A DNA stretch of 64,000 bases from Euglena gracilis (lineage: Eukaryota), in the NCBI GenBank assembly GCA_039621445.1, contig CP154954.1, positions 34,011,737-34,075,736 of the forward strand. Reading direction: 5' to 3'. The position numbers and the translations under genes are program-made. This document shows, one piece after another, positions 1,063-64,000 of the stretch (the first letter of the stretch is position 1; each line of letters begins with the position of its first letter). The notes below the pieces were generated by a model, which ran no database searches, was not told the origin of the DNA, and was given only the letters and a program-made list of their open reading frames with translations.

Positions 1063-1150
1063 TAGACTGCCCAATTTTGATTCCCCTCCAACATGCGGCT
1101 ACGAACAACAAGCTGAAAAACGACAAGAAACTGCATAAACTGACGCTGAC

Positions 1151-6015: not shown

Positions 6016-6250
6016 ACAAAACACGGTGCAAGTACCTACCAGGTTTCCACAAACATTTCATCCCCCTACACCCGACATCCAAGGTGAGGTTCGGCACAGT
6101 CCACGAGTACCCGCCAGTGGAGGACGAGGTGGAAGGTGGTGAACAAAAACCCGATTTGGGGACAGAAAAACCACAGAAACACATCAGAAAACTGCAGGAG
6201 GCAGCCACAGCGACACCAGAACGGGCCACAGCAAAAAAACAAAACCAAAA

Positions 6251-6840
6251 ATGCTGGACCTGTTCTGTGGAACATAATCGGTCAGCAAGGTGTATGAAAA
6301 AATAGGTTTCCAGGTGGTGACGGTGGATTCAGACTCCAGGTGGGAAGCGGATTACCAGGTGGACGTACTGGACTGGGACTTCAGAAAACATTTCAAACCT
6401 GGTGAATTCCACACGGTGGTGTGTGGAGTTCCCTGCGCAGAATTCAGCATTGGCATGACGACAATACCTAGAAACCTGAAAAAGGAGACAGCCTTGCAAA
6501 GAAAGCCCTGGAAATTGTGGAATTTCTGCAGCCGCAGAAATGGTGGTTGGAAAACCCAAGGTACGGATACCTGGGAAAACGAGATTACATGAAACCGTAC
6601 CCGTACATTGACGTGGATTACTGCCAATACACAGACTGGGGCTACAGAAAACCAACACGAATCTGGGGCAGCCCTGACATCCTGCAGGTACCAGCAAAAC
6701 GGTGTGACGGGAAAACGTGCAAGAACCTGGACCCAAACGGTGGTGGTCACCTGGTGAAACTCAGCAACAAACACAACATTCCAGCCTTCAAAACATTCAG
6801 GACCCCAGAACAACTGATTCAGGACCTGGCGGGGTTCCAC
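6251..6840 (+). pseudogene. C5-cytosine DNA methyltransferase domain, A1, broken
   Basis: MLDLFCGT followed by TAA (AAA in copy 2), GVPCAEFS, WWLENPR, VDYCQY, KPTRIWG. Confidence 0.85.
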
Positions 6841-11119: not shown

Positions 11120-11326
11120 GAATGGGAGGTTGATAAAGTACTGAACCACCGCAGAAAAGACGGAAAACTTCAATTTTTGATTCAGTGGAAAAACTGGGAC
11201 CCATCCGACACTCAGTGGGAACCCCTGAACCACTTCTTCCTCCGAACGAACAAAGAGGTGGTCCAATATTGCAAGGAACGGGACTTGGCTGTGGATGTGA
11301 GGGAGTTGCTTGATGGGATGGAGTGA
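11120..11326 (+). other. Chromodomain at the integrase C-terminus, A1
   Basis: EWEVDKVLNHRRKDGKLQFLIQWKNWDPSDTQWEPLNHF fits the chromodomain consensus; separated from IN by TAG where copy 2 has TGG. Confidence 0.9.
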
Positions 11327-12463
11327 CACGTGTCACATACCCCTGCGCTCTCTCGCACACACCGCCACGTCGCCACCCCCAACGACCTGGAAGCCAACCC
11401 CAGCTCTACCACCAACATTAACCTCTATCGACTTGAACCTGTACACCACTGACAAAACCTGCCTGACTCAAAACGACAAAACGGGCCTGGGCAGCCCCCC
11501 TGGCCAGCCCACCTGAACCTGGACCGCTGGCCAACCCAACTCGAACCAGCCCAACAGACCTGTGCAAGACCCGACACGACCCGATTTGACTGACCTCAAG
11601 TGCCTCTCTACAGCCAATCAATCCATTCTTCATCTGTTGTAGTGGGTTGGGACCCCCCCCATGGAGAACGAACCTTCCCCCCCGGACCTGGCCAGCCTAC
11701 CTGTAAAAAAAAACACAGCCCCCAACCCCAACCGTAGCAGCCAGCCAAAACTGGGCAAACAGTTGAAGGGGAAACTGACTTTGACCCAAAAACGCAGACC
11801 TGGCCGACCCCGGGCCACCGGCCTGGGGGGGGGGGGGGGGCGAGGACCCGCCACAGCACCTGACCTCGCACAAACCAGCCTACCCCCCAGAAAAAAAAAT
11901 ACAAAAATACAAAAAAAACATTGTCCTTGACCCAGCCTGATTTTTAACCGAAACCCAGCCTTCACCTGATTTTATTAAAATTCGTCCCCGGCCGGAGCCT
12001 GACCGCTTGGGCTGGGGGGGGCGGGCTGGAAGACCCCAGCTGGACCCACCCCCCACCGAACAGACACCAAGCCTAGGCACCGAATTGGCTAACCGAACAG
12101 AAAACGGCTGTCTAGGACCCTGACCGTGACAAAACAACTCACCTGGCCTGGGAATAAAAATTTCCTGAAAATTTTAACCGTGGCCGGCGCTTGGTTCACA
12201 AACGGCGCCTGCCCCCCCCCAACGCCAAACAGCCCTAGGCGGGCTGGGGGGGGGAGGGCAACACACCAGCCCTGCACAGACCCAACTACCCAAAGGAGAA
12301 CATTTGACTCAGCCCCCCGGCCATAAAACGAACCTGAACGGCACAGCCCCCTGAGGGGGGGGGGGACCCTGAACCACAACGGTCCCCTCGCTGGCCCCTC
12401 CTCACAACGAGTGCACTCCGCACCCCTTCCTGTTGGAGTCGTGAAGAGTTGTAAACAACTTGT

Positions 12464-12473
12464 GGAAGGGGAG
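12464..12473 (+). promoter_or_regulatory. Polypurine tract, A1
   Basis: GGAAGGGGAG immediately before the 3' LTR. Confidence 0.88.
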
Positions 12474-12951
12474 TGTGAGTCAGGGGTGCTGAGTGCCCAA
12501 AACAACATAACCTAACCCAACCCAACCTGATAACTCTGCAGTTAGGATTAGGAAAATCTTATTAGGAATTTCAATTGCTGACCCCATTGTCCCTGCACAG
12601 GGCTCTGTCTTGTTTTTGTCTGTTTCAAGTTCAAGAATAGAATTATCTTGGTTATCAATTATCATTCTTACTTGGACAGTACGTGGTTCATTACATTGGT
12701 GCTGGTTTTGGAATTGCTGAATTGCTTGTATTGTGCTGTTGGTCTTGTGAATTTTTTATCAAAGAAAAGGTGTGAGCCACCCAACTCACCTGTTTTCATT
12801 AAAAAAACCCACCAAAAACAAAGAAAATGCAATTTTTAAAACAGGCCGCGAGGGGAATTGAAAACACCCTGGGCAGGGTTGAAGATCCTACGCAACGGGG
12901 TGCCGGCCCCGAGGAACTGGAAACTCCAGGGCGGGCACCACGGTTACAACA
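12474..12951 (+). repeat. 3' LTR of A1 (478 bp)
   Basis: Direct repeat of 574-1050. Confidence 0.95.
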
Positions 12952-43092: not shown

Positions 43093-43511
43093 TGTGTACC
43101 AGGCAGCATGAACATGGCACTGTGCATAGCAGCAGACTGCAAAATGTACAATGTCATGCCAGATAGTACTATTCCATGTTCTGCAATACCAATTGCAGAA
43201 TTAGGAATAGCCTATCCTATCTCGGATCTGCCTTCTCTTTTCACAGGTGGTATTATTGTTTTGTTTTTGTGTTTCATCAGCCCAAAAGGGCAAATCAGAG
43301 ATTTGAAGATTAGAACTCCGATAGGAGAACATTTGTGGAACTGAAGTTCCAAAATCACACCTGGTTTGCCTTGTGCTCTGCATAAGCCCAAAGCCAATAA
43401 AAACTAATAGTTAAGTAAAAGATTTTCTTTTTTGTTACTCTCCTGGTTCTGTTCCCACGGGAGGGTGTAAGTAGGCCGACAGGCAGTGGGAAAAGAGTCA
43501 GGGGACGTACA
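43093..43511 (+). repeat. Family B 5' LTR
   Basis: Inverted termini TGTAC/GTACA; shares both ends and internal blocks (CACAGGTGGTATT, TGTTACTCT, GTTCCCACG) with 62782-63093. Confidence 0.75.
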
Positions 43512-43513
43512 CT

Positions 43514-43528
43514 TGGTAGCAGATTAGG
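43514..43528 (+). promoter_or_regulatory. PBS of family B, iMet-like
   Basis: TGGTAGCAGATTAGG after the LTR end; identical at 63096-63110. Confidence 0.75.
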
Positions 43529-43768
43529 TTTCTTGCCTACGCCCCTTCTCCCCCCTTCTTCCCCCCATCTTAAAAGGTGACTTCAAATAGTGAGTGGTGC
43601 TGAGCCTATAGGCTATTAAGCATCCACGAGCTGTTTGGAGCCAACTTCTAAGCACAGGTACAAGCTTCAGGAGGCTGTGGGCAGTATACGCTGTCACACC
43701 CTTCTAAGTTTGTTCCTTTGCTTACTTTTTGGGTTTTCTTGTGCCTGTTTGTGCAAATAAATAGAAAT

Positions 43769-46700
43769 ATGCAGAGCTCAAGCACCAACACACTCATTGA
43801 TTACCAAGAATTGATAAGTTCTTTGAGAAGCACTTGTCATGAATTTTTGCAAGAGGAGTATACGCTCCAGTCCAGGTATACCCCAAGCTCTATAGAGCAT
43901 CCCCACGCCAAAATTTCCAGCTCTATTGAGCATCCACCCACCCCAGTGGTTTCCACCTCTATTGAGCATCCCCCCACCCCAGTGGTTTCCAGCTCTTTTG
44001 AGCACCCCCCCACCCCAGTTTTCAGCTCTATTGAGCATCCCCTTACCGTAATTTTCAGCTCTACCAAGCATTCCCCCACCCCGCTTTCCAGCTCTATCGA
44101 GCATTCCCCCCACAGCTCTATCGAGCAACCCCCCACCCAATGGGTGCCACACCTAACGGTGTCCAGCTCTATGGAGCATTCCCAACCCCAACGTGGTCCA
44201 AACCTAATGGTGCCTCATCCCCTCGCCCAATGGGCTCCCCCACACCCATTGGTGTCCAGCTCTATCGAGCAACATATAGCCCAACGGGCACAACCCCTTT
44301 TGATGGAAAGCCGATCGGCTGATAGGTATTCACCCCAGCGAGATTTCGCACCAATGCCCATAGGCACATATGACCCTGAGGCGGTTACACCACAACAACG
44401 TTTTGTTGATGATGGGTTGGAAACACCATGTTATTTCCAGCTCCCCCATTCTCACCCACCCCCAACTCTGATCGGACAATTGACATCCCCACCCGATACG
44501 GGTTCTTTTCCTGCCATGCCTTGCATGGACTCGGCTAATTTGCAGGCACAATTGCCACAAAAATTCCAAAAAGTGAGTGAGACAGTGTGTGAAATACAGT
44601 CCCGCAATGATGCGAATTTTTCCCACTTGCAACATAGTTTGCAGGCTTTGTCTGATCAACTGGAGCCAATAACGGCACAAAAATCCTGATATGGGAGCTT
44701 TTGTTACCTTGAAGCAGTTCGATACCTTAGCTGCTGCATTCCAAAAAGCGCAACAGCGCATTATGGAACTGAGCCGTGAATCGGCAAATTTTCACCATAT
44801 GCACACCCAACCTCGTGAAGGTTTCACTTCCAGCACTTATGTGCAGCAATTGGAGGAAAGACTTTCCCGGTTGGAGCGAAAATCATGTGGGTGTGGTGAA
44901 AATTCTGTTGAAATAGCAAGTTTTTTCGCCCATATCGCGAATATCGCAAGCAGGCAGGATGCTTACCACCAACGGTGGCAGAATAATATTGTTGACATCC
45001 AAGCCGCAATTGCGGAGTTGCAGAACCGCAATGCGGTACCATGTTCACATCATTTAGAACTTCAGCGATTGTCTGCAGATATGCATGACGAAAATCACCA
45101 AGTCAGGAAAAAAAATTTGTGACGGTCCGATACGGACCGAAGAAACAGTGAATCAGCAAGTCAAAAACTTGCAAAAAGATTTCTCAGCGCTATCCGCGCA
45201 AGTTTCAGTGTTTTTGGGACAGCCAATGGCTGAAAACGTGCGGAATCCGAAAAATACCCCTCCTTCCAAACCATCTCCACAACTGGAGTCTATTTCCGAA
45301 GCAGTGCACACTCTAGCTGTGCGACTACGGGAATTGGAAAGTGGTTTTGGAAAAATTTCTCAAGAATTCCGGTCTTTTTCTGACAAAATCCCTCTTCTGG
45401 ACGATATGTCCAAACACCGCAGGCGTATTAAGCGTTTGCAGGAATATATTGGTGCAATCACCGATCATCTGAAAATTATCGACGATTTGGAGAAACAGTT
45501 TCAAACTTGCCGCAGATTCCAGCTTCAAAAGCGCTAATAGCGCACCTTTGGCAAAGCCTATTGGCACATTGCCACAAAATTACGATTCTGCTCATGCAGT
45601 GGTCCCTCCTCCGGCGGTACCAGTCCCAATGGACCATTTTTTGGATGATGGGGTTGGTTTTCAAGAGAACGCCAACAGAAACCCTCAAAGAAATCGAAAA
45701 ATTTGGGAATATGAACTTTGTCGCGGTATGAGCCGCACTCCCGCTCATGGTATTGATCCTGAGATGCATCAGCATCACTATTCGCGCATTCGGGATTCAC
45801 CAAGTTTGCAAGGTACCTATGGTACACCAAGTGGAATATTGAATGCGCATTCGCAATATACACCCAAAACTACACTTGGTGCAACCACCGAGGTACCCGC
45901 GCATGGTGCGGTTTTGCGCCCAGGCCCAACCTCCTTGAATACCACCGAAGGGCCATGGGAGTCTCAGAAAGATATCAAAGGAATTATCGCTATCGCGAAA
46001 AAGGTGAAGCCCCAATGGGACGGTGAACCAACAACATGGAAACAGTTTTTCCGTGATTGGGAATACTACTGGGAATTGAAGGGACCAACCCAGTACGAAA
46101 ATCCGGAGGTGATCAAAATGGAATTCATAGACTGTTTACCAAAAGACGAAAAGGAACGCGTCAGACAATTGGTCATACGCGGGGGCATTTCTTTTCAGGA
46201 TTTAGTAGAGCAATATGCTTCTTCATGTTCAAGTTTGGTTTCCAGAATCACTCTGGAGAGAAAATGGCGGCAATATGCCCCCATGACCGAAAATGGAGGT
46301 CGATAGACCTATGGTACTCAAAATGGCTTTCTTTGGCAGCCGAAGTAGACGACTTAGGCGAAACCCAAATGAAAGAGCAATTCGACACAGTGTTACTGCA
46401 CTTTATACCCAAACTCATCAAAGAAATTCACCGCGAGGAACTCGCAGGAGATGTTTTGACGCTCGGTGAGCGATGAACTATGTTTCCAAACAGTTGAAGC
46501 TATCACAGCTTTTAGGACAAATCCAGTCGGCTTATACGAGCCACCCCACGGCAGGAATACCTGCTATCCAAGTCAGTTCTGTGAAAAAAGTGTCACACTT
46601 ATCACGTACCGCTATGGCGGAATCCAAGTTGCGCAATTCGCGCTCTTCAGAAGAATTTTCGGACAAATTGTGCTTTTTGTGTAATAAAAAGGGTCACATA

Positions 46701-47126
46701 TCTTGCCATTGTCCAAATCCCGCAGCGCGAAAGCGCAACGCAAGCCCAAGAGGATCAGCCTCATCATGCAGTTCTCGATTTTCACAAAATGCGCATTCAC
46801 AAAATTCAAAATATCGATCACGATCCACATGTTCACTGTGCGGATCAACCAACCACCCCTCACCTAAATGTCTCTATGCGACTCCTCCCCACCCAAGCCA
46901 TCGCGATATGACTCGCAGTTCAAAAGATCATACTTCAGCCAAAAGGCATAAGGTAGGTCAACGAACAACCTCTATTGAGGATTATCACCCGGCTTCGGGC
47001 AGGGAGGGGGATGATACCCCATGTAACAAAAGGGATCATCCCTACTTTAGCGCTCATAAATCCAGAGACGTATATGCGTCAAGAAAGTCAAAGGCTGATA
47101 TGGCCACCGGTTCGGATTTTGAGTAA
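43769..47126 (+). pseudogene. gag: Family B gag, fragmented
   Basis: SSIEHP repeats, coiled coil, capsid-like PQWDGEPTTWKQFFRDWEYYW, knuckles CFLCNKKGHISCHC (46671-46712) and CSLCGSTNHPSPKC (46830-46871). Confidence 0.8.
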
Positions 47127-47738
47127 AGTCACCCGAAACCCAGGGATGTGGACTACGGAGGCTACTAGAAAGGAGGTGACAGGAGTCATGACCCTAGTCA
47201 TCCCCTGCCCAGTATCCTTTCTGGTCATCGTTCCAGGATTTTCCGGTGTCCCCGCTCAAAATTCTGCCAAGTTTTTGACATATAGACAGTTTTGTGTTTC
47301 CTGTTCTGGTGCATCATGGGATACGCCATGAATGACCTTGTGGTTGAATGGATTTACACTTCAAGAATGCACACAGCTCCGCAAACTTCTTCCCCCATCA
47401 AAAACTTCCACTACTCATCATTTTTACATACCGTTTTCGATGACAGCAACATCGTTTTCAACAACACCAACACCGTTTTCAACCCAGGGGTAAAGAGAAA
47501 GTGCCCGCCCTACCCGCCGCATATCCACAAACGTTCCACATGCGGTAGGGGTAACAAGTAGCTTAACCCCCTATCGTTTCACTGGGTTCCAAGACGAAAG
47601 CCCTAAGGCCTGAAATTCGAATGGTGTCGAGTAGTCGCACAGCTGCTTTCATTTTTCGTTTACCACCAGGTTTGTCGATTGCAGACAATCCTGTACAACC
47701 CCGCAGCTCAAATTCGCATAAAATTTTTCTGACACACT

Positions 47739-48025
47739 TGCAAGTTGGGGGATGGTCCAGCGTGTCCAAATAATTTCAGCACATCAGACGTCTGGCCAAA
47801 ACCAACTTTTAAGGCTTCAGGGGTCTTCTTCCCAAACTTCCCCACACAGCACCCCAGAAGACAAGACTTGATACTTGAATCCAGTTCAGAGTCCCACGCA
47901 AACTTGTACACTGTTTGCCAGCTTGCCTGTGAAAAATGTAATTCCCCAAAATCTCTGTGAGCCAATGCTTAATTTCTGCTGGCATCTCTTACCAAAATAA
48001 ATCTCAAATCTGGCCCGCGCTCACA
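47739..48025 (-). repeat. Element C 3' LTR
   Basis: Repeat of 49108-49394; adjacent CCCCCCTTCCC (48026-48036) is a minus-strand PPT. Confidence 0.8.
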
Positions 48026-49107
48026 CCCCCCTTCCCAAAAACAATTGCCAGGCAATTGTCCAAAACAGAAATAAAAAATGAGCGGGCCGGAGATAAAATT
48101 CAACACACACACACGCAGCAGCGACATGGAAAAGTGATGAATGGCGGTTCTCGAATTTAAATTGCCAAATCTTCGAATCCACAGATAATTGTATACATGT
48201 CCAAATCCACAGATAAACCCCATGTGGGGCCCGCCTACCTGCACCCCAGCCTTTCCACCTTAGAGGGCCATGTCGTACGACCTACCCCGTACAACATGAC
48301 CCCCCATGGGGTCCAGCCGGGGCTTCGGCGACCCCCGCCGAGCCAAACCGGAGCAGAGCCCCCTTGAAGCGGCCCAGCACCGAACGGGGAGGCGGCACAC
48401 ACCACAGCCATCACAGCAGCAACAGGTTGACAAACTTGAAGATGATCACCCGATGTGCATTTGTAGGGCTGTTGCACAACCCTGATCACTGTTTTTTACG
48501 AGGTCAGGCTCCTCGCGCCGAAATCTCCAGGGGGAACTTGACCAATGACGTTGAAACTTGACATCTTGAACTTGGGAACTTGAAATCTTGGACATCACAC
48601 CTTGGATCCTCCACAGATTGACCTTGGGAACGTGGAATCTTGGAAATGATGACAGAACTCCTTCACAGATTGACCTTGGGAAATTGAAATCTTGACATGA
48701 CCACTTTCTTCCACCACAGATTCCTTGGGATCTTGAAATTGAACTTGACATCTTGACTTGAACTTGACCCTGAAATGACATCTTGACAGACATTTTGGAG
48801 ATTGAGATTATTAATGATGATGGCGGGCTGTGATTGACATTCGTCTGTCCTTCAGCCCAGGCTCCAACCAAGATCCACAGCAGCACCAACTCCAGGATCA
48901 CCTGCTGCTAGCTTGATCTGGAGAGTTGATCATGGTGGCCCAACACAGCATCTCACTGTGTGCCAACTGGTGCCTTCCTCTGCCTTGTCCCCCTTCTGCC
49001 GCTGTGCTGGCCCGCCACTTCCATGACATTTCACTTCTGAGTGTCTCCCGGCTCCACAGGTACGTTTGTACGGGGCTTTTCTGCACTGCAAATCTCATAC
49101 AAGTTTG

Positions 49108-49394
49108 TGCAAGTTGGGGGATGGTCCAGCGTGTCCAAATAATTTCAGCACATCAGACTTCTGGCCAAAACCAACTTTTAAGGCTTCAGGGGTCTTCTTC
49201 CCAAACTTCCCCACACAGCACCCCAGAAGACAAGACTTGATACTTGAATCCAGTTCAGAGTCCCACGCAAACTTGTACACTGTTTGCCAGCTTGCCTGTG
49301 AAAAATGTAATTCCCCAAAATCTCTGTGAGGCAATGCTTAATTTCTGATGGCATCTCTTACCAAAATAAATCTCAAATCTGGCCCGCGCTCACA
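49108..49394 (-). repeat. Element C 5' LTR
   Basis: Near-identical to 47739-48025. Confidence 0.8.
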
Positions 49395-49524
49395 TGGTAG
49401 CAGAGGTTACAACATGTTACAACCTGGTAGCAGAGGTGGACTGCCCATTTTTGATTCCCCTCCAACATGCGGCTACGAAGAAGAAACTGAAAAACGACCA
49501 GAAACTGCAAAAACTGACGCTGAC

Positions 49525-52500
49525 ATGCCTGCTGTCTCAACTGCCATCGTTAGGATGGTGGAGCCGGCGGATGGCTGCCCAGCTCTGAACCAAACTCTGG
49601 ATGTGCCAGCTGCCTTAACCGCCATCGCTAGGGTGGTGGAGCAGGCGGATGGCTTCCCAGCCCCGAACCAAACACGGGAAATGCCAGCTGCCCTAACCGC
49701 CATCGCTAGGGTGGTGGAGCCGGCAGATGGTTTTGCCGCCATGTACCAATCACTGGACAGCAACAGGTGGACTGAAACTGAACAAGACGGCACAGACATT
49801 ACAGTGCCACGGACATGCAATGACAGCCCACGTGTCATTGCCATGGTGCACATGGACCAGGACGACACCGAACAGACCGGTCCAGCACCAGATTACACAG
49901 AACTGGACGAAAACAACGAACCGTACTTCGACGAACAGGTGTTTGCACCACAAAACTGGTACCAACAGCCAGAAACGGACACTCAGAACGAACAAAACTG
50001 GCAAACTGCAACAGCACAGCAACCAGGAACCCAGAGTTTTGCACTGGTGGCGGTACGACAGAGCCCGGAACAACCAGACCACCTCCAGGGTGAAACTGAA
50101 ACTTCGTACCAGGAACCTTCGTACAGCTCGTACGAGATTCCACAGCCGGAACCACAGAACCAGAACACTGACTGGGACTGGTGGTCGAACTTTGCGTACG
50201 AAACTGGACAGCTGACCCAGGAATTTCAACAGTTCAGACACAAAACTGAACAGACGAATCAGCAAACGGCAGAAACACTGCAGCAGCTACAGCAAACAAC
50301 GACGGAATGGGTCAGCGAACTGCACGCAGCAGTCAACAGACAGGGTGAAGCACTCATGACAGAAATAAACGGCAGACACGAAGAACTGACGACAGTCCTG
50401 GCAACAACCCAAGCAAACATGGAACAGGTGACCGTCAACCAGAACAGACTGTACCAGGAACATTTCAACAGAATGTCACAGCAGATCACAGAAGTCAGGG
50501 AAATGTCTGGCTCACTGGGTGAAAAACTCAGGGAATTTCACAGTTTTCTGCAGATGGCAGGGGGAAACGCACAGAACCAGGGTGAACATTTGGTTGGTTT
50601 ACTACACCGACAGCGAGAAAACGAAAACACAACTGCAGAACTGCAACAGAGATTGGCTGTGGCAGAAGAACGGGTCGCAGGAATCACAGGCGGAGTCCAA
50701 ACGGTGAACAGCAAAGTGGACGAAACTGTGGCAACAGTGTCCAGAAAAGTTGAAAACCTCAGAGGCGAAATCAGCAGTGTGGTGGAAAGAATTCAGAAGG
50801 ACATGGGCAATGAAATCGGAAATCTGGCAGGACGGGTTCAGCAGCAGGAAAAAAAAACGACAAAAAAAAACAACCATTCAAAACTGTGATTACCTACACA
50901 AAAAACTGGTCGAACTGCAGAAAATCCCAGATCAGCAGCAGCAGATTACACAGCTGAACGAGGAAATCGGCAGACTGAAACGACAGGTGGAAACTCTGAC
51001 CTCCAACGAAGAAAAACACAAACAACGCACTGAACGCCTGAACCTGGAGGTCGGCAACCTGGGTGACAGGGTGGACGAAACAGCCCAAACGACTCAAAAC
51101 CTGCTGGGTGAACTACAAAAAGGGACCATTAAAACGGGAACACATGCCACATCTGAACATGCCAAATTGCTGGAAATGACACCTGCCATTGGCTCAATGA
51201 CAACCAGGGTCGGTCAACTGGAAGCAAAACTGGCTGGTCTGACAACAAAAACTGCAGAACGAGAAACACATGATAACGGCATCTGGCAGCATTTACATTC
51301 TCTGACCACGGAACTGCAAACACAGCAGAAACGGTGGACAGAACAGCTGGTGACCCTGGACAGAAAAATCAGTATGGTGACAAAAACGACTGAAAACCTG
51401 ACTGAAAAACTGGAAAGGCAAAACACCCAGCAAATCACAACCCCCAGCCCTAGCCTGGCTGAAATACCCAAACTTTTTGAAAATCTTTGCATTTCCTCTC
51501 GCCCAGCCTGCACAGGGGCCTTCGGGCCAGAGTCAGGGGCCAGCCCCCTGGCCAGTGGGCCTCCCTCGAGGACCCAGGCTGGACAGCCAGGGGCAGCCAC
51601 AACGGCCCAACGGACTGAACAACCCCCCCAGGGGGCAGACAGGGCCGCGGGCCAACGGGGATCGGGGACCCCACAACCCCAGAACCAGCCCCCACCAGCC
51701 CTGAGGGGCCAGCCCACGAGACAACACGGGACGGGGACCCTAGAACCCCAGGCCTGGCCAACGGGGATGGGGACCCCACAACCACTGGCCCAGCCACGGC
51801 CAGCCCTGAGGGGCCAGCCCGCAGGAAACCAAGGGACGGGGACCCCAGAACCCCAGGCCTGTCAAACGGGGACGGGGACCCCACAACCCCTGACTGGTAT
51901 GTTCAGCCAGAGCGGCCAGCAGTGGGGGGACGAAACACCACACCCAAAAATGGAAGGAGGAGCTGCAGCACTGGGGACCGTTAACTCGGCTTCCCTGGTG
52001 GGGCAGCTCATCCAGCAAGAACTAAAAACTGCCTTGACACCGTTAACTGCCCAACTGACCCGACAAACAGAACGACCGACTGCAGTCCCGATGAGCCCAA
52101 CACTCACGACAAACCCGACAAGCCCAGCACCACAGCCAACCCAGCCGACTCAGCAGACTCAACAGCCAGTGACGACGCAACAAAACCCACAGTCCCGGAC
52201 ACGGGGCTTGTTCATGTGGGCAGACGAAACAGAAACTCAGAACACAGCCACAACCTCCTGGGTGGGACCCCAGGTGGGGTCTACCCAAACTGCCATCCAC
52301 CACATAGGAGAGGAAACAGTGGTGGCACCCGTGGCAACGGCCCCGACAGCATCCTTCGGGCTGCTGCTGGGTCCAGTGGGCGCGGCAATGACCAAAGACC
52401 TGGTAAGACCAACATTGCAGGGGAATTTCGCAGATTTTGCCGTGAAATTTCCAATGTACCTGCAACGTGTGTCAGCCGGTCAGGGGTCCCTGACCGATGA

Positions 52501-53767
52501 CCTGAAACTGTCACTGCTGGAGGGCAGCCTGGACAGTGCCAGCAAACTGGAACTACAACGCAGACAGGAACGCGGTGAGAAAATAAAATACCAGGAATTT
52601 TGGAACTGGATGTGCCAGAAATACGGTGGAGACACACAATCAGCCATCAAAGACGAACTGAAAAACCTGAGACCAAAAACGGAAGGAAAACTGACACTGG
52701 AAGCGTGGAGGGAGTTTGAAGCCCATTTCAAACTCCTCTACAGCAGGCTGGAAAATCCATCAGAAGAAGACGCTTACAACCTGGTGGCTGAAAAAATGCC
52801 TGAAACGCAACGCAGAAGCTGCATCAGGGAACAGGACCGCAGAAATCAGGACAGACCGACACTGAAACTGAAAGGGGTCACGAACATTACAAACGTCCCA
52901 GATGCAACAACGGAAGACGTTCGTGCCCTGGTGGCAGCAACAGTGGGCACAGGTGAAAACCTTCAGGTGGCACGAGACGGAAAAAACTTCAGGATCCAAC
53001 TGCACAGCAGCAGAGCTGCTGAACTGCTCCTGATGAAAAACGGTTCAACGCTGCTGACTGGACATAAACCCCACTTCACACAGGTGCAGGCAAGACTGAC
53101 TCTGGATGAACTGTTCCAACGTGTGGAAACCGAACTCAGGTGCCAACAACAGTCAGACTCCCTGGGTAGGGGGTACAACGGCTGGCAGAACCAACCTCGT
53201 GAAAACAGATCACGGTCAATGGACCGCAGGGGTTACGTCAGGGAAGTCAACGAGGAGGAGAAAACAAAATCCAGAAGTCGGACACCACCTTCCAGATCCC
53301 GACCTAACTCCCCTGGACCTCGAACCCCAACACCTGAAAACCCCAGACCCCCTTCTCCACGCCAGCAGGTGACCATGCAAGTTTCAGAACAGCCTGGCCA
53401 GGGACGGTACACCAACTGGTCAGACTGGGGACAAAACGACTGGGGCAAAGGCAAAGGAAAGGGGAAAGGTCAAAACTGGGGTTCAACCAAAAACTGGAAC
53501 CAGAACCAGAACTGGAATCAGAATTACGGCAAAGGCTACAATTCAGGAAAGGGATACAACTCTGGGAAAGGATACGATTCTGGGAAGGGGAGCGGGAAAG
53601 GAAAAGGCAAAGGGCAGCCACAGCCACAGCCAGCAGCAACAAAAACGGAACCACAGCCACAGCAAACCAACTCACAGGAGCCAGCCATCCAGCGGCAGGG
53701 ACAGCCAAAGGCAGAAGCATCTTCCAGCAATCGCTGGCAGCCAGTTCAAAACGCAGAACGGAAGTGA
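49525..53767 (+). pseudogene. gag: gag-like ORF1 of A2, one frameshift in A-runs near 50850-50870
   Basis: ORFs 49348-50889 and 50750-53767 match A1 gag. Confidence 0.82.
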
Positions 53768-54000
53768 AGGGGCTGCGGCCTGAGGGTAGGGGACGAGAGG
53801 GGCGACTCTCTGCAGACACAACCGAAACAACAAAACAAAACAAGGGAACCAGGTCCAGAGCCGCAGCAGTCATACACACTGGGTAAGGGAGGTAAGAAAA
53901 AATCCCAAAAGAAAAACATCCTGACAAAAAATTACTCCACAGCCCAGAACCGAAACGGGAACAGGTCAGCTGCAGGTTCGGCAGAGCAGCTTCACGGTGG

Positions 54001-56139
54001 GTGTCTGAAAACTACCACGTGAAGGAAGAAAAAATGACAGAAATTCTCTCACACTTCGGGGTCCAGCCCCAGCTGGACGCCTTTGCAACGGAAAAAAACA
54101 AAAGATTCCCGCAGTGGTGGGGATCTGGCAGCCCTGAGGGCACAGACGCATTTGAAAAAGCCTGGCACGGAAAACTGCTGTGGATGAACCCACCATTCAG
54201 CAAAATTTCACAGGTGGTGAGAAAAATTCAAACAGACGAGGCCCATGCACTCCTCATGGTACCCAGATGGGTTCACAGAAAGTGGTACGGAGAAATCAAA
54301 AAACTGGCAGTGATGTCAATGTTCATCCCAGCGGGAACAAAACTGTTCGGACAGGGTGACAAGAACTGCAGGAATACACCGTGGCATGTGGAAGTGTTTT
54401 TGGTATGCGGACACAAAACACGGTGCAAGTACCTACCAGGTTTCCACAAACATTTCACCCCCCTACACCCGACATCCAAGGTGAGGTTCGGCACAGCCCA
54501 CGAGTACCCGCCAGTGGAGGACGATGTGGAGGGTGGTGAACAAAAAACCGACTTGGGGACAGAAAAACCACAGAAACACATCAGAAAACTGCAGGAGGCA
54601 GCCACAGCGACACCAGAACGGGCCACAGCAGAAAAACCAAAACCAAAAATGCTGGACCTGTTCTGTGGAACAAAATCGGTCAGCAAGGTGTATGAAAAAA
54701 TGGGTTTCCAGGTGGTGACGGTGGACTCAGACCCCAGATGGAAAGCGGATTACCAGGTGGACGTACTGGACTGGGACTTCAGAAAACATTTCAAACCTGG
54801 TGAATTCCACACGGTGGTGTGTGGAGTTCCCTGCACAGAATTCAGCATTGCCCTGACGACAAGACCCAGAAACTTGGAAAAGGGAGACAGCCTTGCAAAG
54901 AAAGCCCTGGAAATTGTGGAATTTCTGCAGCCGCAGAAATGGTGGTTGGAAAACCCAAGGTACGGATACCTGGGAAAACGAGATTACATGGAACCGTACC
55001 CGTACATTGACGTGGATTACTGTCAATACACAGACTGGGGTTACAAAAAACCAACACGAATCTGGGGCAGCCCTGACATCCTGCAGGTACCAGCAAAACG
55101 GTGTGACGGAAAAACCTGCAAGAACCTTGACCCGAACGGTGGTGGTCAACTGGTGAAACTCAGCAACAAACACAACATTTCGGCCTTCAAAAAATTCAGG
55201 ATCCCAGAACAACTGATTCAGGACCTGGCGGGGTTCCACGAACGGCTACGTCAAACCAGCCAAGCCCAGGCCGCGCAGCAACAACCGCTGCAGCAGCCCA
55301 GCCCTGCCCAGACTGCACGACAAAACATGCTCTCACAGCCCAGCCCAGAACTGACAGGTGGACAGCCAAACTCTGATTCAACTGACAAAACAGAACCAGA
55401 CCAAAACATTCGGCTTCCAAAACGACTGCGTGAACCGGTGTTAAAACTCCTGCTGGGGCAGGTCATCAGCAGAAAGAAAGCAAAACAACTCCTCATCGAA
55501 GTCCGTGCTGTGTTGCCGGATGGCAAAAAAATGTTCCTACAGGCCCTGATCGACACGGGAGCACAGGCAAACCTGGTGAAAAAGAACCTGATTCCCCAAC
55601 AAAACTTCAGACGTTCACAAAAACCCTTGGCCCTGATCACAGCAGACGGAACAAGGATGGAAGGAGGACTACACGAAGTCACACTGGAACTGCAGTTTTC
55701 ATCACGGGTGCACAACACGGACAGAACAAGGGAGTGGTACACCATTGGAACATTCCATGACGCCGACATCCAAGTGGATGCCATCCTCGGATATCCGTGG
55801 ATGGAACAACACCAACTGGGGGTTTTCCCACACCTACAATCACTAGCCCTCATAGGTGAACCACTGCGGCTGCTGTCCAGTTGGCACCAGCTGAAGGAAC
55901 AAAAACACAGGGAACGAAAAATACACCAACTTCAGAAAAACATTTCAGAGGTTCGAGCAATGAATTTGCAGATTCCTGCTGAAGCGGGCCAGGACGAGGA
56001 AATACTGTTTGAAGACGAAACAACACTGGAAACTCTGGCAAGACAACTTCAGAAATCGGCAAAGAAATCTGACAGGGTTCACGGTGTTGTGGTGCAGAAG
56101 GACAGGAAACACAAGGCGAAAAGGTGGCAGAACTGGTGA
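54001..56139 (+). CDS. Uninterrupted N-terminal pol frame: amino-MTase, C5-MTase, aspartic protease; true start uncertain (first ATG 54034)
   Basis: One 712-codon frame with LDAFAT, DAF, NPPF (~54001-54410); MLDLFCGTKS, GVPCTEFS, WWLENPR, KPTRIWG, IPEQLIQDL (54649-55236); LIDTGA (DTG at 55552-55560). Confidence 0.88.
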   Translation: MSENYHVKEEKMTEILSHFGVQPQLDAFATEKNKRFPQWWGSGSPEGTDAFEKAWHGKLLWMNPPFSKISQVVRKIQTDEAHALLMVPRWVHRKWYGEIKKLAVMSMFIPAGTKLFGQGDKNCRNTPWHVEVFLVCGHKTRCKYLPGFHKHFTPLHPTSKVRFGTAHEYPPVEDDVEGGEQKTDLGTEKPQKHIRKLQEAATATPERATAEKPKPKMLDLFCGTKSVSKVYEKMGFQVVTVDSDPRWKADYQVDVLDWDFRKHFKPGEFHTVVCGVPCTEFSIALTTRPRNLEKGDSLAKKALEIVEFLQPQKWWLENPRYGYLGKRDYMEPYPYIDVDYCQYTDWGYKKPTRIWGSPDILQVPAKRCDGKTCKNLDPNGGGQLVKLSNKHNISAFKKFRIPEQLIQDLAGFHERLRQTSQAQAAQQQPLQQPSPAQTARQNMLSQPSPELTGGQPNSDSTDKTEPDQNIRLPKRLREPVLKLLLGQVISRKKAKQLLIEVRAVLPDGKKMFLQALIDTGAQANLVKKNLIPQQNFRRSQKPLALITADGTRMEGGLHEVTLELQFSSRVHNTDRTREWYTIGTFHDADIQVDAILGYPWMEQHQLGVFPHLQSLALIGEPLRLLSSWHQLKEQKHRERKIHQLQKNISEVRAMNLQIPAEAGQDEEILFEDETTLETLARQLQKSAKKSDRVHGVVVQKDRKHKAKRWQNW

Positions 56140-59100
56140 AAAAACTGCGGCAGGACTATGAAGGAGTGGTCCTGCGGGACAAAATCTTCCCAGACCCCCC
56201 AGAACGCGGACCACTAGGTTATGGGAAAATCGAACTGAAACCTGGAACAGTGGCGAAAAAACAAAGACCCATCCACATGACAGGAGAACGCCGACAGGCA
56301 CTCATCGACATGGTGGACGAATGGGTTAGGGACCTGAAAGTGGAAGACGGGAGGAGTGACTGGTCCAGCCCCACGTTCGTGGTGGCCAAAAAGGGTGGAA
56401 AATGGAGAGGGGTGGTGGATTTCAGAGCACTGAACGAGGCAACAATCACAGACGCCCATCCCCTCCCTAGGATAGAAGACATCCTAGTTCAACAAGGACA
56501 ACGGGCCCTGTACAGTGTACTGGACCTGAAAGACGCCTTCCACCAGGTGCCACTGAGATCAGAGTCCAGACCTTACACCTGCTGCAGCACACCTAAGGGA
56601 ACAAAACAGTGGAGAGTGGTGGTCATGGGAATGAAGAACGGGGTACCGATTTTCCAGAGGGTGATCGAGTACAGCCTGGAGGAGGTACAGGACATTGCAA
56701 ATCCCTACGTGGACGACATCATCGTAGGAACCATGTGGCAGGGAACTGAAGACAAACCCTCGAACAACACGACAAGGACATCAGAAGGGTGATGGAGGCA
56801 CTGAAAAAACAGCAACACGTGGCAGACATCAAGAAATGCAAATTTTTCGTGAAAGAGGTGGAATTCTGTGGACACGTACTCGGTGGTGGACAACAAAAAC
56901 CTGCACCTGGGAAATTGATGGCCTTGGAAAAATGGGAGGAACCCAAAACGGTCACAGCCCTGCGGGCATTCCTGGGATTCACAAACTACTACGCCTCATA
57001 CATCCCAGGATACGCAGAATTGGCTGCAGACCTGATGGAAAAACTGAAGGTAAAAAAAGGACAGGGGAAGAAAGGAAGCCTGACACCTGTGTTTTTCGGT
57101 GAAAAGGAAAGAACAGCCTTCCAGACCATCAAAGAAAAACTGCTGGGAAGCCTGAAACTGCAAACAGTGAACCCAGACAAACCGTTCATACTCAGGGTGG
57201 ATGCAAGTGGCAGAGCCGTAGGTGCGGCTCTGGAACAATTTGCGGAGGACAATGAAGAAAAACCAGACCCAACAACAGCCATGACCAAAAAAACAGTACC
57301 CGTAGCTTTCTGTTCACGAAAACTGACACCTGGGCAGGTTCGCTCGTGGTCTCCTAGGGAGAAGGAGACCTACGCAGTGATCCTGGCCCTGCAAAAATGG
57401 GCTTCCTGGATAGGAATGCAACCGGTACTGGTGTTGACGGACCACAAGTCCATTGAGGCATGGGCAACGGAGGCGCTGGACACCCCCAGTGGACCAGCTG
57501 GACGTAGGGCTAGGTGGCACGAACTGCTTTCGCGGTTCGACATAACCGTTGCATACGTACCTGGCAAAGACAACACGGTCGCCGATGCCTTGAGTAGGTG
57601 GGCCTACCCCGCCTCACAGGCATTCGCCGACGTGAGTATCCACGGGAGTGAGGAGGACGACCGACTCATGAAAGAAATCATCAAACAGGAGGAAAAGGAA
57701 CAGAAAACTTGTATGGTGATCAACGTGCAAGACCTGACACAGGCACAAAAACAACTTCAAGAACCCGTCACTGTGGCCGTCACAACAAGGGGGGGAGCCA
57801 AAACGGGTGAAGATTCGCCCACAGTGCCTGGTTCAACGGAAAACGGTGACACCCCTCAAAAAATTTCAAAAACACCTCAAAAACCTGCAAAAACGACAAA
57901 GAAATGGGTTGTGAAGGAAACGACTGTGGTGGAACCAAGCAAAAAACTGGCTGAGGCAACCCCAAGGGAGACCACGGATGAGGCGGGAAACCTGAGCCGA
58001 CCAGACCAACCAAAAAACAAAACCCCAGAAAATTCAAACACGGCCGAGGGACCATCCACTGAGGAAGACCCACCAAGGCGAAGACCCCTGGAAGAGGACC
58101 TGTGGAACCCCTAACAACAACAGACTCAACAAAGCAACAGGACGCGCAAGGTGCGTCATCCTGAACGGGGACACCCGTTGGACCTCCATCAAGGGGAGTG
58201 CACTCCCCGGAGCTTCAACAGGGGGAACCGAAAGGGGTGATGGACAGGGAATGGAAGAACGAGTACGAAAGTTGCCCAAAGTGGGGACCTGTGCTCAAGG
58301 ACCTGAAGGGAACAGGGTTCAAAAACTGGCCTGACGGGTACCGATTCGACAACGGCAGGCTCTACAAAAACGCACTCCTGTGTGTACCAGGTGGGTTGAC
58401 TGGAAACGTAATTCGGGAACGTCACGAAACAGCCGGGCACCCAGGGTCAGCCCGACTGTGGGACCAGATGAGAAGGTGGTTTGCGTTTGCGGACCACCAG
58501 GATGCAAAAAAACTGACAGGCAAAAAGATGACCATGTGTGAAACCTGCCAAGCCACAGAACCCAGCCACCTACCATACAAGTGCCCCATTGAACCGACAC
58601 CAATTCCTGCACACCTGATGGACAGTGTTGCCATCGACTTGTTCTCACTTCCTGAAACGACCTTTGAAGAGAAAAATACGACACGTTGGCGTTGTGTGTG
58701 GACAGGCTGAGTGGATGGATGGTTGCAACCCCCCACCTGGCCAAGGGACTCACGGCAGAAAAGGTTGGAAAGGACATGTACAAACAGTGGGGAATTTTTG
58801 GGATACCCTCGGTGGTGAGCTCCGACCGGGGCTCCCACTTCACAGCCGGTTGGTGGAAAACACTGTGTGCTGCCCACGGGGTCCGTGTGGCGTACGGGCA
58901 GGCATACCACCACCAAGCCAACGGACGGGCTGAGGTAGCGGGTCAACAAGTCCTCCGAAAACTGGCAAAACTGGCTGCTGAGAAAGGGGTACCCTGGGTT
59001 GAACTCCTACCGAACGCCTTGAGGGCCCTACACGACGTCCCAGGTGAAACGGGATTGTCACCGTACGAAATTGTGTTTGGCATGCACAGACCGTTGGCGG

Positions 59101-59716
59101 GATTGCCATACCAACCACAAAAGGAAGCGGAAGGGGCCACAACGTTCTTGGAAAGGATGAAAGAACAAGACCAGTGGGTGAGCCTGGTCCTGAACGAAAA
59201 ACAACGTGAACGGGCTGAATCGGTGAACCAAAAACGCAGAGAACCACCTGTCTTGGAAATCGGTTCCAAAGTCTGGTATCAACCCGAAAAACAACCTGGC
59301 ACCGACAAACTCGAACCGAAGTGGAAATGGCCTGCAGTGGTGTTGGAAAGAGTGGGACAACACTCCTACGTGGTGGAACTTCGACCTGGTAACCGACAAC
59401 CTGCCCACCGTTCACAACTCAAACCCCACGTGGAGGACTTCTACAACACAACCCTGTTCCCCTCTACTTTTGGTCGGGCAAGGCACAGGAGTTGGAGGTC
59501 GGACCTGACGAGTGGGAGGTTGAAAAAGTTCTGAACCACCGCAGAAAAGACGGAAAACTCCAATTTTTGATTCAGTGGAAAAACTGGGACCCGTCGGACA
59601 CTCAATGGGAACCCCTGAACCATTTCTTCCTCCGAACAAACAAAGATGTGGTCCAATATTGCAAGAAACGGGACCTGGCTGTGGATGTGAGAGAGTTGCT
59701 TGATGGGATGGAGTGA
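56124..59716 (+). pseudogene. pol: Rest of A2 pol: RT, RNase H, integrase, chromodomain; frameshifted
   Basis: YVDD, RVDASG, SDRG, NGRAE and WEVEKVLNHR across ORFs starting 56124, 56789, 58198, 58686 and 59492. Confidence 0.92.
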
Positions 59717-61441
59717 CGCAAGTCGCATACCCCTGCACTCCCTCACAGATGCCGCCACGTCGCCACCCCCAACGACCCCGTCGCCAACCCCAACCCTACC
59801 ACCCACACAAACCTCGACCAGCCCCCTTCACCATCTCCACCATACTACCCCCACCCCTACGTGCCCTTGAGGCCCAACTTCCTTCCCCCCTGTGCCTCCG
59901 AACTTCAACACCAACGCAAACGAGGCCACCCCCACCACCATACCGCCCCCCACCGCCATACCAACCCCCACAACAACCCTCACCTCAACCCCCTCACAAG
60001 CCCCCACAGCCACCCCCACAGCGGAGCCCCAGCCCGAACCCCCCGCAGCTGGAGCCACCGAGCCCTCCGCGGAGGCGGAGACGCTCAGTCTGCTCCAGCC
60101 CGGGCAGTCTCCGGGGGGTATAGCTGCCCCTGGACAGCCCCCCCGCAACTCCCCCCCGCAGTCCACGACCCCCCTCACCGCAGCCCAAGCCCCCCACCGA
60201 CGACAACCTCCCCAAGAAACAGTGGTGGGTAGCGGAGCTGCTGGACCTGTGACGGGTGAACCCCCCTCCCCTGCAAGGCGCGGGTGCCCCCACGGGCCCC
60301 GCCAGTATACCCAGAGCCTTGCGGTGGGACCCGAAAACAACCTGAAAGAGACTTCACGACCGAGATTCCGAGCTGATTTACAACCCTGACCGAATTCTCA
60401 AGCTGCACACCCCAGTCCGACATGAAGCTGTGCACCACTGACAAAACCTGCCTGACTGAAAACTACAAAACGGGTCTGGGCAGCCCCCTGGCCAGCCCAC
60501 CTGAACCTGAACCGCTGGCCAGCTCAACTCGACCCAGCCCAACTGTCCCATACAAGACCCGATCCGACCCGATTTGACTGACCTCAAGTGCCTCTCTTCA
60601 ACCAATCAATCCATTCTTCATTTCTCCATCGTTGTTGTTGTGGGTTGGGACCCCCCCCCGTGGAGAACGAACCTTCACCCCTGAACTTGGCCAGCCTACC
60701 TGTAAAACAAAAAACAACAAAACACAGCACCCAACCCCAACCGTAGCAGCCAGCCAAAACTGGGCAAACGGTGGAAGCGGAACCTGACATTGACCCAAAA
60801 ACGCAGACCTGGCCGACCCCGGGCCACCGGCCTGGGGGGGGGGGGACGAGGACCCTCCACAGCACCTGACCTCGCACAAACCAGCCTACCACCCAGAAAA
60901 ACATCAAAAATACAAAAAAAACCATTGTCCTTGACCCAGCCTGATTTTTACCCAAAACCCAGCCCTCAAATGCTTTTATTAAAATTCGTCCCCGGCCGGA
61001 GCCTGACCGCTTGGCCTGGGGGGGGGGGGCTGGAAGACCCCAGCTGGACCCACCCCCCACCGAACAGACACCAAGCCTAGACACCGAAGTGGCTAACCGA
61101 ACAGAAAACGGCTGTCTAGGACCCCGACCGTGACAAAACAACTCACCTGGCCTGGGAATAAGAATTTCCTGAAAATTTAACCAGGGCTGGCGCTTGATTC
61201 ACAACGGCGCCTGCCCCCCCCCAACAAACAGCCCTAGGTGGGCTGGGGGGGGGGGGAACAGCACACCAGACCCCCGCACAGACCCAACCCCCCGGCCATA
61301 AAACGAACCTGAACGGCACAGCCCCCTGAGGGGGGGGGGGACCCTGAACCACAACGGTCCCCTCGCTCGCCCCCTCCTCACAACGAGTGCACTCCGCACC
61401 CCTTCCTGTTGGAGTCGTGAAGAGTTGTAAACAACTCCTTC

Positions 61442-61452
61442 GGGAAGGGGAG
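61442..61452 (+). promoter_or_regulatory. Polypurine tract, A2
   Basis: GGGAAGGGGAG before the LTR. Confidence 0.88.
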
Positions 61453-61937
61453 TGTGAGTCAGGGGTGCTGAGTGCCCCAAACAACATAACCTAACCCAAC
61501 CCAACCTGATGACTCTGCAGTTAGGATTAGGAAAATCTTATTAGGAATTATTAGCATTGCTGACCCTATCTGTTTGCACAGGGCTCTGTCTCTGTCACTG
61601 TTTTTGTCTGTTTCAAGTTCAAGAATTGAAGTATCTTGGTGGAAAATATCATTCTTACCTGGACAGTTCGTGGTTCATTACATTGGTACTGGTTTTGGAA
61701 TTGCTGAATTGCTTGTATTGTGCTGTTGGTCTTGTGAATTTTTATCAAAGGAAAGGTGTGAGCCACCCAACTCACCTGTTTTCACCAAAAAGACCCACCA
61801 AAACAAAAGAAAATGCAATTTTTGAAACAGGCCGCGAGGGGAAGTGAAAACACATTGGGCAGGGTAAAAGATCCTACGCAAAGGGGTGCCGGCCCCGAGG
61901 GACTGGAAACTCGAGGGCGGGCACCACGGTTACAACA
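61453..61937 (+). repeat. 3' LTR of A2
   Basis: TGTGAGTCAGGGG...GGTTACAACA; more diverged from the A1 LTRs than they are from each other. Confidence 0.93.
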
Positions 61938-63406: not shown

Positions 63407-64000
63407 GATCGCCGACCTCTAGCCGGGGCAGAGCGCTCGTTTTTGGAGCGCCGGCGCAGCCGATTTCGGCCGAAAACGGCCGAAAAATGACGTTTTTCGG
63501 GGTGTTCGTGGTTTACGTGCTATTTTGCGCCTCCCGGGCGGTAACGGCTGCGTTTTACGCACGCCCACCGCGGGCAAAATTGCGCCTATCCGCCCGCCGC
63601 CCTTCGCAACAATTAGAGAAAGGATCGCCGACCTCTAGCTGGGGCAGAGCGCTCGTTTTTGGAGCGCCGGCGCAGCCGATTTCGGCCGAAAACGGCCGAA
63701 AAATGACGTTTTTCGGGGTGTTCGTGGTTTGCGTGCTATTTTGCGCCTCCCGGGCGGTAACGGCTGCGTTTTACGCACGCCCACCGCGGGCAAAATTGCG
63801 CCTACACACTTGCCGCCCTTCGCAACAACTAGGTAAAGGATCGCCGACCTCTAGCCGGGGCAGAGCGCTCGTTTTTGGAGCGCCGGCGCAGCCGATTTCG
63901 GCCGAAAACCGCCGAAAATGACGTTTTTCGGGGAGTTCGTGGTTTACGTGCTATTTTGCGCCTCCCGGGCGGTAACGGCTGCGTTTTACGCATCCCCGCC
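63407..64000. repeat. 216-bp satellite resumes in the same orientation
   Basis: GATCGCCGACCTCTAGCCGGGG onward matches the monomer. Confidence 0.97.

Follow-up and report, generated by a model that had tools for sequence, protein, structure and literature searches.

What kind of enzyme is encoded at positions 54649-55236 on the plus strand of a Euglena gracilis window, and how does a cytosine methyltransferase come to be so small? The window is the whole 64,000-nucleotide (64-kb) stretch of contig CP154954.1 analysed here, and it contains two copies, A and B, of one element; the stretch in question lies in copy B. An original prediction, made from the sequence alone, had described a minimal methyltransferase with a Cys/His-rich C-terminal part, possibly of viral or prokaryotic origin. 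We consider it highly probable that the stretch is the cytosine-5 (C5) DNA methyltransferase (DNMT) module of a Ty3/gypsy chromovirus-like gag-pol polyprotein, carried by a long terminal repeat (LTR) retrotransposon of the EpiLTR architecture (bioRxiv 10.64898/2026.05.21.726589), and that the module belongs to a distinct family of about 200 residues that carries a Cys3-His cluster and nearly lacks a target-recognition domain (TRD).

Translation with the standard code yields 196 residues without a stop, and every C5-methyltransferase motif that had been named beforehand is present in them. LDLFCGTKS corresponds to motif I, GVPCTEFS to motif IV with the catalytic Cys62, and WWLENPRYG to motif VI with ENP, followed in the C-terminal part by VDYCQY, the motif VIII-like KKPTRIW, RCDGKTC and the motif X-like FRIPEQLIQDLAGF. 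The reading frame of the domain in copy B is thus intact with the catalytic motifs kept, and His167 is replaced by Gln. Pfam PF00145 matches the 196 residues with an E-value of 3e-5 (24.1 bits against a cut-off of 22), and with 1.1e-4 when scored within the whole 747-codon frame around them. A phage library gives phrog_757 at E 8.9e-13, and NCBIfam a weak match to the dcm superfamily and nothing else. The C5-methyltransferase identity of the stretch is far beyond chance. Structure prediction, which had been proposed as a check, gave a confident C5-methyltransferase fold: the AlphaFold2 model, built on 29 homologs, has a mean predicted local distance difference test score (pLDDT) of 93.0, a predicted template-modelling score (pTM) of 0.89 and no segment below a pLDDT of 50. 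A Foldseek search of the model against the Protein Data Bank (PDB) returned 141 chains at E <= 0.001, and the rows displayed are C5 methyltransferases.

Superposition of the complete model (residues 1-196) against solved enzymes by the program VIA-align gave Z 14.6 for DNMT3A (residues 636-904, with 184-187 residues aligned), 14.0 for M.HhaI (14-317), 13.4 for M.HaeIII (3-319), 13.1 for DNMT1 (1141-1593) and 12.8 for DIM2 (842-1233). The overall fold thus matches DNMT3A/B, M.HhaI, M.HaeIII, DNMT1 and DIM2 at Z 12.8-14.6 over 183-195 residues. The DNMT3A/DNMT3B catalytic domain, which also has a small TRD, gives the best structural score, but it shares only 17% identity with the window domain, and its equivalent of the 196-residue span is 269 residues long. 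As this score ties with that of M.HhaI, the match reflects the shared core fold and not family membership. The claim of minimal size is borne out by the same comparison (196 residues against a span of 269 in DNMT3A and 304 in M.HhaI). Since the alignment runs end to end on complete catalytic domains, the model places the whole C5-methyltransferase core within 196 residues, 73 fewer than in DNMT3A. The residues are saved between motif VIII and the final helix, the usual place of the TRD. A separate TRD between motifs VIII and IX is absent, and about 45 residues (R137-R184) stand in this region; the solved enzymes span 269-453 residues.

The short length is the natural state of a family, as 72 complete short proteins indicate. 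A word-indexed search found 103 relatives of 107-343 residues, and a profile search of 1.84 billion cluster representatives gave 11,840 matches at E <= 1e-3, 4,383 at E <= 1e-10 and 1,182 at E <= 1e-30. The filter for complete proteins of at most 250 residues that end a few residues past the RIPxxL helix was passed by 72 sequences, a count that takes in the query and a few fragments. The 196-residue domain aligns from its first to its last residue with the short viral members, which are complete enzymes of about 200-240 residues ending just after the RIPxxL helix. Conservation was counted over 238 aligned hits. The catalytic Cys62 is invariant (224/224), and Glu101 of ENP is found in 228 of 230. 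Pro103, which replaces the Val of ENV, is kept in 223 of 230, making ENP a family-wide variant. Arg137 of KKPTRIW is present in 191/223. In motif I, Phe5 and Gly7 are invariant in alignment A1, the family consensus is FSGTGS, and the Thr-x-Ser after the Gly is a variant of FxGxG.

Conservation of the cysteines had been set beforehand as the test on which the prediction could fall, and the cluster is kept in the homologs: Cys125 in 225 of 228, Cys152 in 198 of 200 and Cys157 in 194 of 198, with His167 in 149 of 186. The 36 retroelement-linked homologs are stricter still, with Cys62 in 35/35, Glu101 in 36/36, Cys125 in 36/36, and Cys152, Cys157 and His167 each in 35/35. The ambiguous His or Gln at the fourth position, as first described, is therefore Gln in copy B only; copy A and all 35 of these homologs that have a residue there carry His. 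Copy B retains three of the four putative ligands, and copy A all four. Cys125 lies in the core directly before the motif VIII region, and Cys152, Cys157 and His167 lie in the loop that occupies the position of the TRD. From this arrangement we infer that the Cys3-His pattern is a structural zinc site tying the loop to the core. Judged by the alignment and the predicted fold, the family is a distinct group of C5 methyltransferases of about 200 residues with a whole catalytic core and almost no TRD, in which a 45-residue loop would instead be pinned by Cys125, Cys152, Cys157 and His167. Could the domain be a non-catalytic relic at the level of the family, a pseudo-enzyme binding S-adenosylmethionine (SAM) or DNA and kept for the structure of the polyprotein? 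The local copies fit such a view, as copy B lacks His167 within a dead element and the DNMT of copy A is frameshifted. However, between 34 and 36 of the 36 retroelement-linked homologs, which are only 41-59% identical to the window domain, retain Cys62, Glu101, Arg137 and the residues that bind SAM. This pattern indicates purifying selection on catalysis and makes a pseudo-enzyme very improbable.

The domain is not a gene of its own. The Met at 54649 was considered as a gene start and ruled out, since the stretch lies inside a 747-codon open frame (53896-56139) that holds a Dam domain, the DNMT and a protease region in that order. The sequence is a domain of an LTR-retrotransposon polyprotein; the absence of regulatory domains in the original prediction holds for the 196 residues taken alone and fails for the polyprotein, which has a Dam domain and a chromodomain. 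The Dam-like N6-adenine methyltransferase domain with its NPPF motif lies upstream of the DNMT at 54040-54336 (plus strand, as are all features of both copies given below), corresponding to residues 49-147 of the frame (PF05869, E 5.5e-7, 29.9 bits against a cut-off of 28.1). Downstream in the same frame is the aspartic protease region (55501-55674) with LIDTGA, matched by Peptidase_A3, gag-asp_proteas and RVP at E 0.0016-0.015. Reverse transcriptase (RT) follows at 56385-56732 (PF00078, E 5.6e-22), in a frame that differs from that of the protease in copy B, and RNase H at 57098-57604 (PF17917, E 4.9e-22; PF17919, E 8.2e-20). The integrase at 58384-59429 is split over two frames and comprises the H2C2 zinc domain (PF17921, E 8.4e-6), the core (PF00665, E 6.1e-6, below cut-off) and an SH3-like part (PF24626, E 0.0015). 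A chromodomain (59513-59617; PF00385, E 6.1e-11) forms the C-terminal end of pol. The Pfam domain order along 53896-59716 is therefore Dam, DNMT, protease, RT, RNase H, integrase and chromodomain.

Copy A is a full-length element at 574-12951, with 478-bp LTRs about 97% alike, TG..CA ends and a 4-bp target duplication (CCGG), a primer-binding site that starts with TGG and follows the 5' LTR, and a polypurine tract that precedes the 3' LTR. Over 10.4 kb it is 95.6% alike to copy B. Its DNMT remnant (6251-6837) keeps His167 but does not share the frame of the Dam domain, and a single nucleotide has been deleted inside it. Two DNA methylases are carried by this element, a chromovirus-like LTR retrotransposon of the Ty3/gypsy group. 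Stand-alone relatives of the methylase are common on giant-virus contigs, and the stretch might on that account be an integrated giant-virus fragment, or else a free host gene. This reading is contradicted by the anatomy of the element and we give it almost no credence: one open frame joins the methylase to Dam and protease, RT, RNase H, integrase and chromodomain follow, the sister copy A is bounded by LTRs with a target duplication, and no giant-virus hallmark genes were seen in the 64-kb window.

Several observations weigh against our preferred reading of an EpiLTR cytosine methylase from a short, nearly TRD-less family. The Pfam match covers only the N-terminal half of the domain (residues 2-102), and the PDB profile search aligns motifs I-VI only. 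As no sequence tool aligned the C-terminal half, the motif VIII and motif X assignments rest on the predicted fold and on conservation within the family. KKPTRIW retains a single Arg of QxRxR, and RIPxxL stands in place of GNAV. Copy B lacks the His ligand (H167Q). All of the protease matches, those to Peptidase_A3, gag-asp_proteas and RVP, fall under the curated Pfam cut-offs, with the LIDTGA motif itself visible. Finally, LTR expression in Euglena is low or undetectable according to section 10 of the EpiLTR preprint.

Where else does this module occur? Among 66 longer homologs, RT, RNase H, integrase or chromodomain is present in 23, Dam in 14, and at least one of these in 30. Three intact metagenomic polyproteins show the order of the window, with Dam, DNMT, RT, RNase H, integrase and chromodomain (P0251, 1896 residues; P0269, 1788; P0287, 1885). 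In P0289 the DNMT lies between RNase H and integrase, and in P0249, P0261 and P0144 it is N-terminal and Dam is absent. The module is thus found in at least three different positions within Ty3/gypsy polyproteins. Outside retroelements, a PHD finger stands N-terminal to the minimal DNMT domain in the metagenomic proteins P0173, P0166 and P0168, a fusion to a chromatin reader, and these three branch among the stand-alone sequences in the tree described below.

The likeness to small viral methyltransferases, noticed at the outset, is well founded, as the nearest stand-alone relatives lie on giant-virus contigs and in phages and prophages. A scan of IMG/VR gave at least 573 confirmed relatives. 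Neighbours were scanned at six loci, and in three of them (L069, L071 and L075) hallmark genes of nucleocytoplasmic large DNA viruses (NCLDVs) are near the short methylase, namely NCLDV major capsid proteins, family-B polymerase, D5-type primase, A22 resolvase or topoisomerase IB; none was found among the scanned neighbours of L005, L016 and L025. The best viral structural match is a putative cytosine DNA methyltransferase of Tetraselmis virus 1 (UniProt A0A2P0VN45, 218 residues) with the same short architecture, which Foldseek aligned at E 7.4e-21, with template-modelling (TM) scores of 0.89/0.80, a root-mean-square deviation of 2.3 Å and 34% identity. Similar to the window family, the giant-virus relatives show the Cys3-His pattern in their alignment rows. 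They differ in being stand-alone genes of double-stranded DNA (dsDNA) virus genomes, in the 10-20 residue insert that many of them have after motif IV, and in forming clades separate from the retroelements.

The phage records number 34, of which 32 cover at least 80% of the bacterial query, and 22 are Bacillus phages annotated 'C-5 cytosine-specific DNA methylase I'; Haloferax tailed virus 1 (HFTV1) and Inoviridae are also among the records. The phrog_757 enzymes, such as those of Bacillus phage Deep Blue and HFTV1 (gp60), have about 210-220 residues and the same motif order as the window domain. At about 30% identity, they differ in a cluster of C-x4/5-C-H in place of the C-x4-C-x9-H of the window family, and the HFTV1 protein lacks one Cys. 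Prophage-like contigs with a related gene occur in metagenome-assembled genomes (MAGs) of Bacillota. A scan of prokaryote genomes with a single peptide pattern gave at least 10 relatives, four of which were examined by their neighbours: one adjoins a Pox_A32 ATPase, two are prophage-like, and L082 has only ThyX nearby. A cellular prokaryotic home was considered and finds no support in these four loci. The Pox_A32-type packaging ATPase adjoins the short methylase on L081 (2828-3508), which is filed under a bacterial MAG and is probably a misbinned virus of eukaryotes. The short methylase often lies beside other C5 methylase genes; three stand in a row in phage Deep Blue (L091, 1-2151), and a small contig labelled Pacearchaeota (L083) has two (185-874 and 2442-3083).

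Which of these carriers gave the gene to which was addressed by phylogeny. The phage-rooted tree of 72 rows was computed with IQ-TREE under LG+C20 with posterior mean site frequencies (PMSF) and a short search; it omits near-duplicates above 62% identity, the long-branch sequences L090 and P0105, L082 and L083, and about half of the 150-row set. The phage/Bacillota group serves as outgroup with a support of 99. A retroelement clade of 23 rows unites all eight proteins with proven retroelement domains, the window sequence and 14 extended metagenomic proteins, with a Shimodaira-Hasegawa-like approximate likelihood ratio (SH-aLRT) support of 97, and most IMG/VR sequences fall in another clade with a support of 95. 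In quick FastTree and IQ-TREE trees rooted on phages, the retroelement clade was nested in the radiation of stand-alone giant-virus sequences. This nesting was withdrawn, because the approximately unbiased (AU) test favoured, by 14.2 log-likelihood units (p-AU 0.71), a tree constrained to keep all stand-alone sequences together in a single group. The data are consequently silent on who donated the gene to whom. The horizontal capture from viruses that had been suggested is thus not shown, as a sister relationship of the retroelement and viral versions is compatible with the AU test.

An origin from a eukaryotic host enzyme must be weighed at this point, in which a module of the DNMT4/DNMT1 group secondarily lost its TRD, and giant viruses and phages took the gene from eukaryotes or retroelements. 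Section 8 of the EpiLTR preprint places the EpiLTR DNMTs in a clade of 100% bootstrap that is sister to DNMT4. The best PDB sequence matches of our family profile are to DNMT1 (E 5.3e-7), a Cys3His zinc cluster is described in the TRD of DNMT1 (PMC6316889) and a zinc ion in DIM2 (PMC11315935), in the parts of these papers available, and the AU test does not put the retroelement sequences inside the viral ones. However, Bacillus phages, an archaeal tailed virus and prophages also have the short form with its Cys cluster, for which a eukaryotic gene is not an easy source. Cys125 belongs to the catalytic core just before motif VIII and not to a TRD, and DIM2 matches the family profile only at E 0.003. 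In addition, the published tree is one of 'representative eukaryotic DNMT families', with no viral sequences named in that section. Neither the profile matches of DIM2 and DNMT1 nor the structural Z of 12.8 for DIM2 decides the DNMT4 placement. On balance we regard the host origin as unlikely. A further proposal, put forward tentatively and at somewhat less than even odds, is that the cytosine methylase of EpiLTR elements did not arise by trimming of a eukaryotic DNMT and is a member of a separate, ancient, virus-borne TRD-less lineage of about 195-220 residues, which would use a Cys3-His zinc knuckle as its DNA-contact surface and would have moved as a self-sufficient module between phages, giant viruses and retrotransposons.

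Elements of this kind have been described before. The EpiLTR preprint of May 2026 reports, from Euglena gracilis and Cymbomonas tetramitiformis, LTR retrotransposons that have Dam, DNMT and chromodomain, and the window element, which joins a Dam-like adenine methylase to a C5 DNMT and a chromodomain, matches this architecture. The window shows the Ty3/gypsy order together with the LTR pair, target-site duplication, primer-binding site and polypurine tract in copy A, and Dam, DNMT and chromodomain within one element. According to the same source, the Euglena form is structurally distinct from that of Cymbomonas, in which the DNMT is at the 3' end of pol. What the present analysis contributes beyond this is the anatomy of the family: the short length of the DNMT and its viral relatives are not described in the available sections of the preprint, and the words 'zinc' and 'cysteine' do not occur in the main text as available. 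In the literature searched, including that on giant viruses and Euglena, we found no description of a short C5 methylase family with a Cys cluster common to phages, giant viruses and retrotransposons.

Capture of a C5 DNMT by retrotransposons has precedents. DNMT3 has been captured by retrotransposons, and SymbioLINE-DNMT, SymbioDIRS-DNMT3 and the charophyte Gypsy-DNMT3 carry a C5 DNMT inside the retrotransposon coding region, as here; two retrotransposon DNMTs methylate CG de novo (de Mendoza et al. 2018, PMC5890265, as far as its available parts go). These elements differ from the window element in their DNMT lineages and element classes, and the same parts report no Dam partner. Section 8 of the EpiLTR preprint likewise treats the EpiLTR acquisition as distinct from the SymbioLINE, SymbioDIRS and Gypsy-DNMT3 cases.

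How might such an enzyme work? In intact members, the domain would be made as part of gag-pol, with an acidic linker on one side and a Gln/Pro-rich linker on the other, both presumably flexible, and would act inside the polyprotein or after release by the protease. SAM would be held by the FxGT-S loop, Asp26 and Asp38. The target cytosine would be flipped out and Cys62 would attack its C6 atom as in the classical C5 mechanism, with Glu101 contacting the base and Arg137 also taking part. The Cys3-His cluster is predicted to bind zinc and to provide a short DNA-contact surface. With a zinc-pinned loop in place of the TRD, a short target sequence is expected, a dinucleotide or slightly longer. 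The enzyme might put 5-methylcytosine (5mC) on the new DNA of the element or its surroundings, beside N6-methyladenine (6mA) from the Dam domain, and an element with Dam, DNMT and chromodomain together could place both kinds of DNA mark on the copies that it newly makes or on what surrounds them. According to section 10 of the EpiLTR preprint, CG methylation is close to being the default in Euglena, and 6mA marks a subset of promoters.

The missing TRD also means that classical recognition of duplex DNA is not assured, and the domain might act on RNA in the manner of DNMT2 or DNMT6, for example on the genomic RNA of the element or its tRNA primer. A tRNA methyltransferase (9hgm, E 0.0011) and DNMT2 (1g55, E 0.0028) are among the PDB sequence matches, and RNA-acting DNMTs free of companion domains are described in the available parts of a recent paper (MBE 2025, PMC12344493). 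DNA methyltransferases nevertheless outscore RNA ones in both sequence and fold, the stand-alone members lie in dsDNA virus genomes beside DNA methylases, as with the three adjacent C5 methylase genes of phage Deep Blue, and the partner of the DNMT in the polyprotein is a DNA adenine methylase. We therefore regard an RNA substrate as improbable and retain a DNA cytosine methylase of the short EpiLTR family as the preferred reading. If active, members of this family would be among the smallest autonomous DNA cytosine-5 methyltransferases, and such a small natural enzyme is a candidate for studies of activity and specificity. The replacement of a recognition domain by a Cys3-His knuckle is a concrete structural hypothesis. 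Retrotransposons that both write 5mC and 6mA and act as readers of histone marks received a name only in 2026; family membership refines the possible source of their cytosine module.

The local biology is modest, as both copies have decayed. In copy B the DNMT frame is intact and pol is split by six frame changes. Together with the lack of a 5' LTR and the loss of the His ligand, these breaks show that copy B is dead. Both local copies are relics, and the biology is to be read from the family. Contigs of four public runs (X1, X15, X16 and X20; one RNA-Seq metatranscriptome, two runs guessed to be RNA and one DNA run) were compared with positions 53000-60000. At six places these contigs are longer or shorter than the window, and the places correspond one-for-one to the frame changes of copy B, which indicates that other members of the family read through. 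Contigs from RNA or putative-RNA libraries have the read-through length at every one of these places or at nearly every one. In the DNA run that form accounts for about 1% to 53% of the depth, depending on the place; its low share means that broken variants are abundant, and a broken variant seems to have multiplied in the genome. The metatranscriptome and putative-RNA contigs cover 53000-60000, although DNA carry-over is possible and the contigs are not proof of transcription. A 98%-identical Dam+DNMT protein of 544 residues carries His at position 167.

The 5' internal part of copy B (49416-53767) retains a vestige of the primer-binding region, together with a long gag-like frame ending in an in-frame TGA; this frame of 1019 codons has no Pfam match. 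The 3' LTR lies at 61452-61937, and no matching 5' LTR was found in the 64-kb window. The place expected for it is taken by 6.3 kb (43093-49415) that separate copy B from a satellite array, in which several frames reach 140-345 codons and eight frames gave no significant Pfam match. A motif consisting of the end of an LTR and a primer-binding site is present twice just before 49416. The in-frame TGA between the gag-like frame and the Dam-DNMT-pol frame occurs in both copies (53765-53767 and 5367-5369) with identical flanks, which suggests stop-codon read-through as a strategy for gag/pol expression. Right after the chromodomain, about 600 bases of copy B (59815-60418), with proline-rich and repetitive frames, are absent from copy A.

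Both copies lie within a 216-bp tandem satellite, which copy A interrupts. The satellite occupies positions 1-573, 12952-43093 and 63407-64000 with about 145 units, about half of the window, and has a GC content of about 0.60 and an observed/expected CpG ratio of 1.54. In the elements this ratio is 0.57. The coding strand of both copies shows a very strong excess of A over T, with an AT skew of 0.26-0.45 (2000-12000 and 50000-60000), and the AT skew of the satellite is slightly negative.

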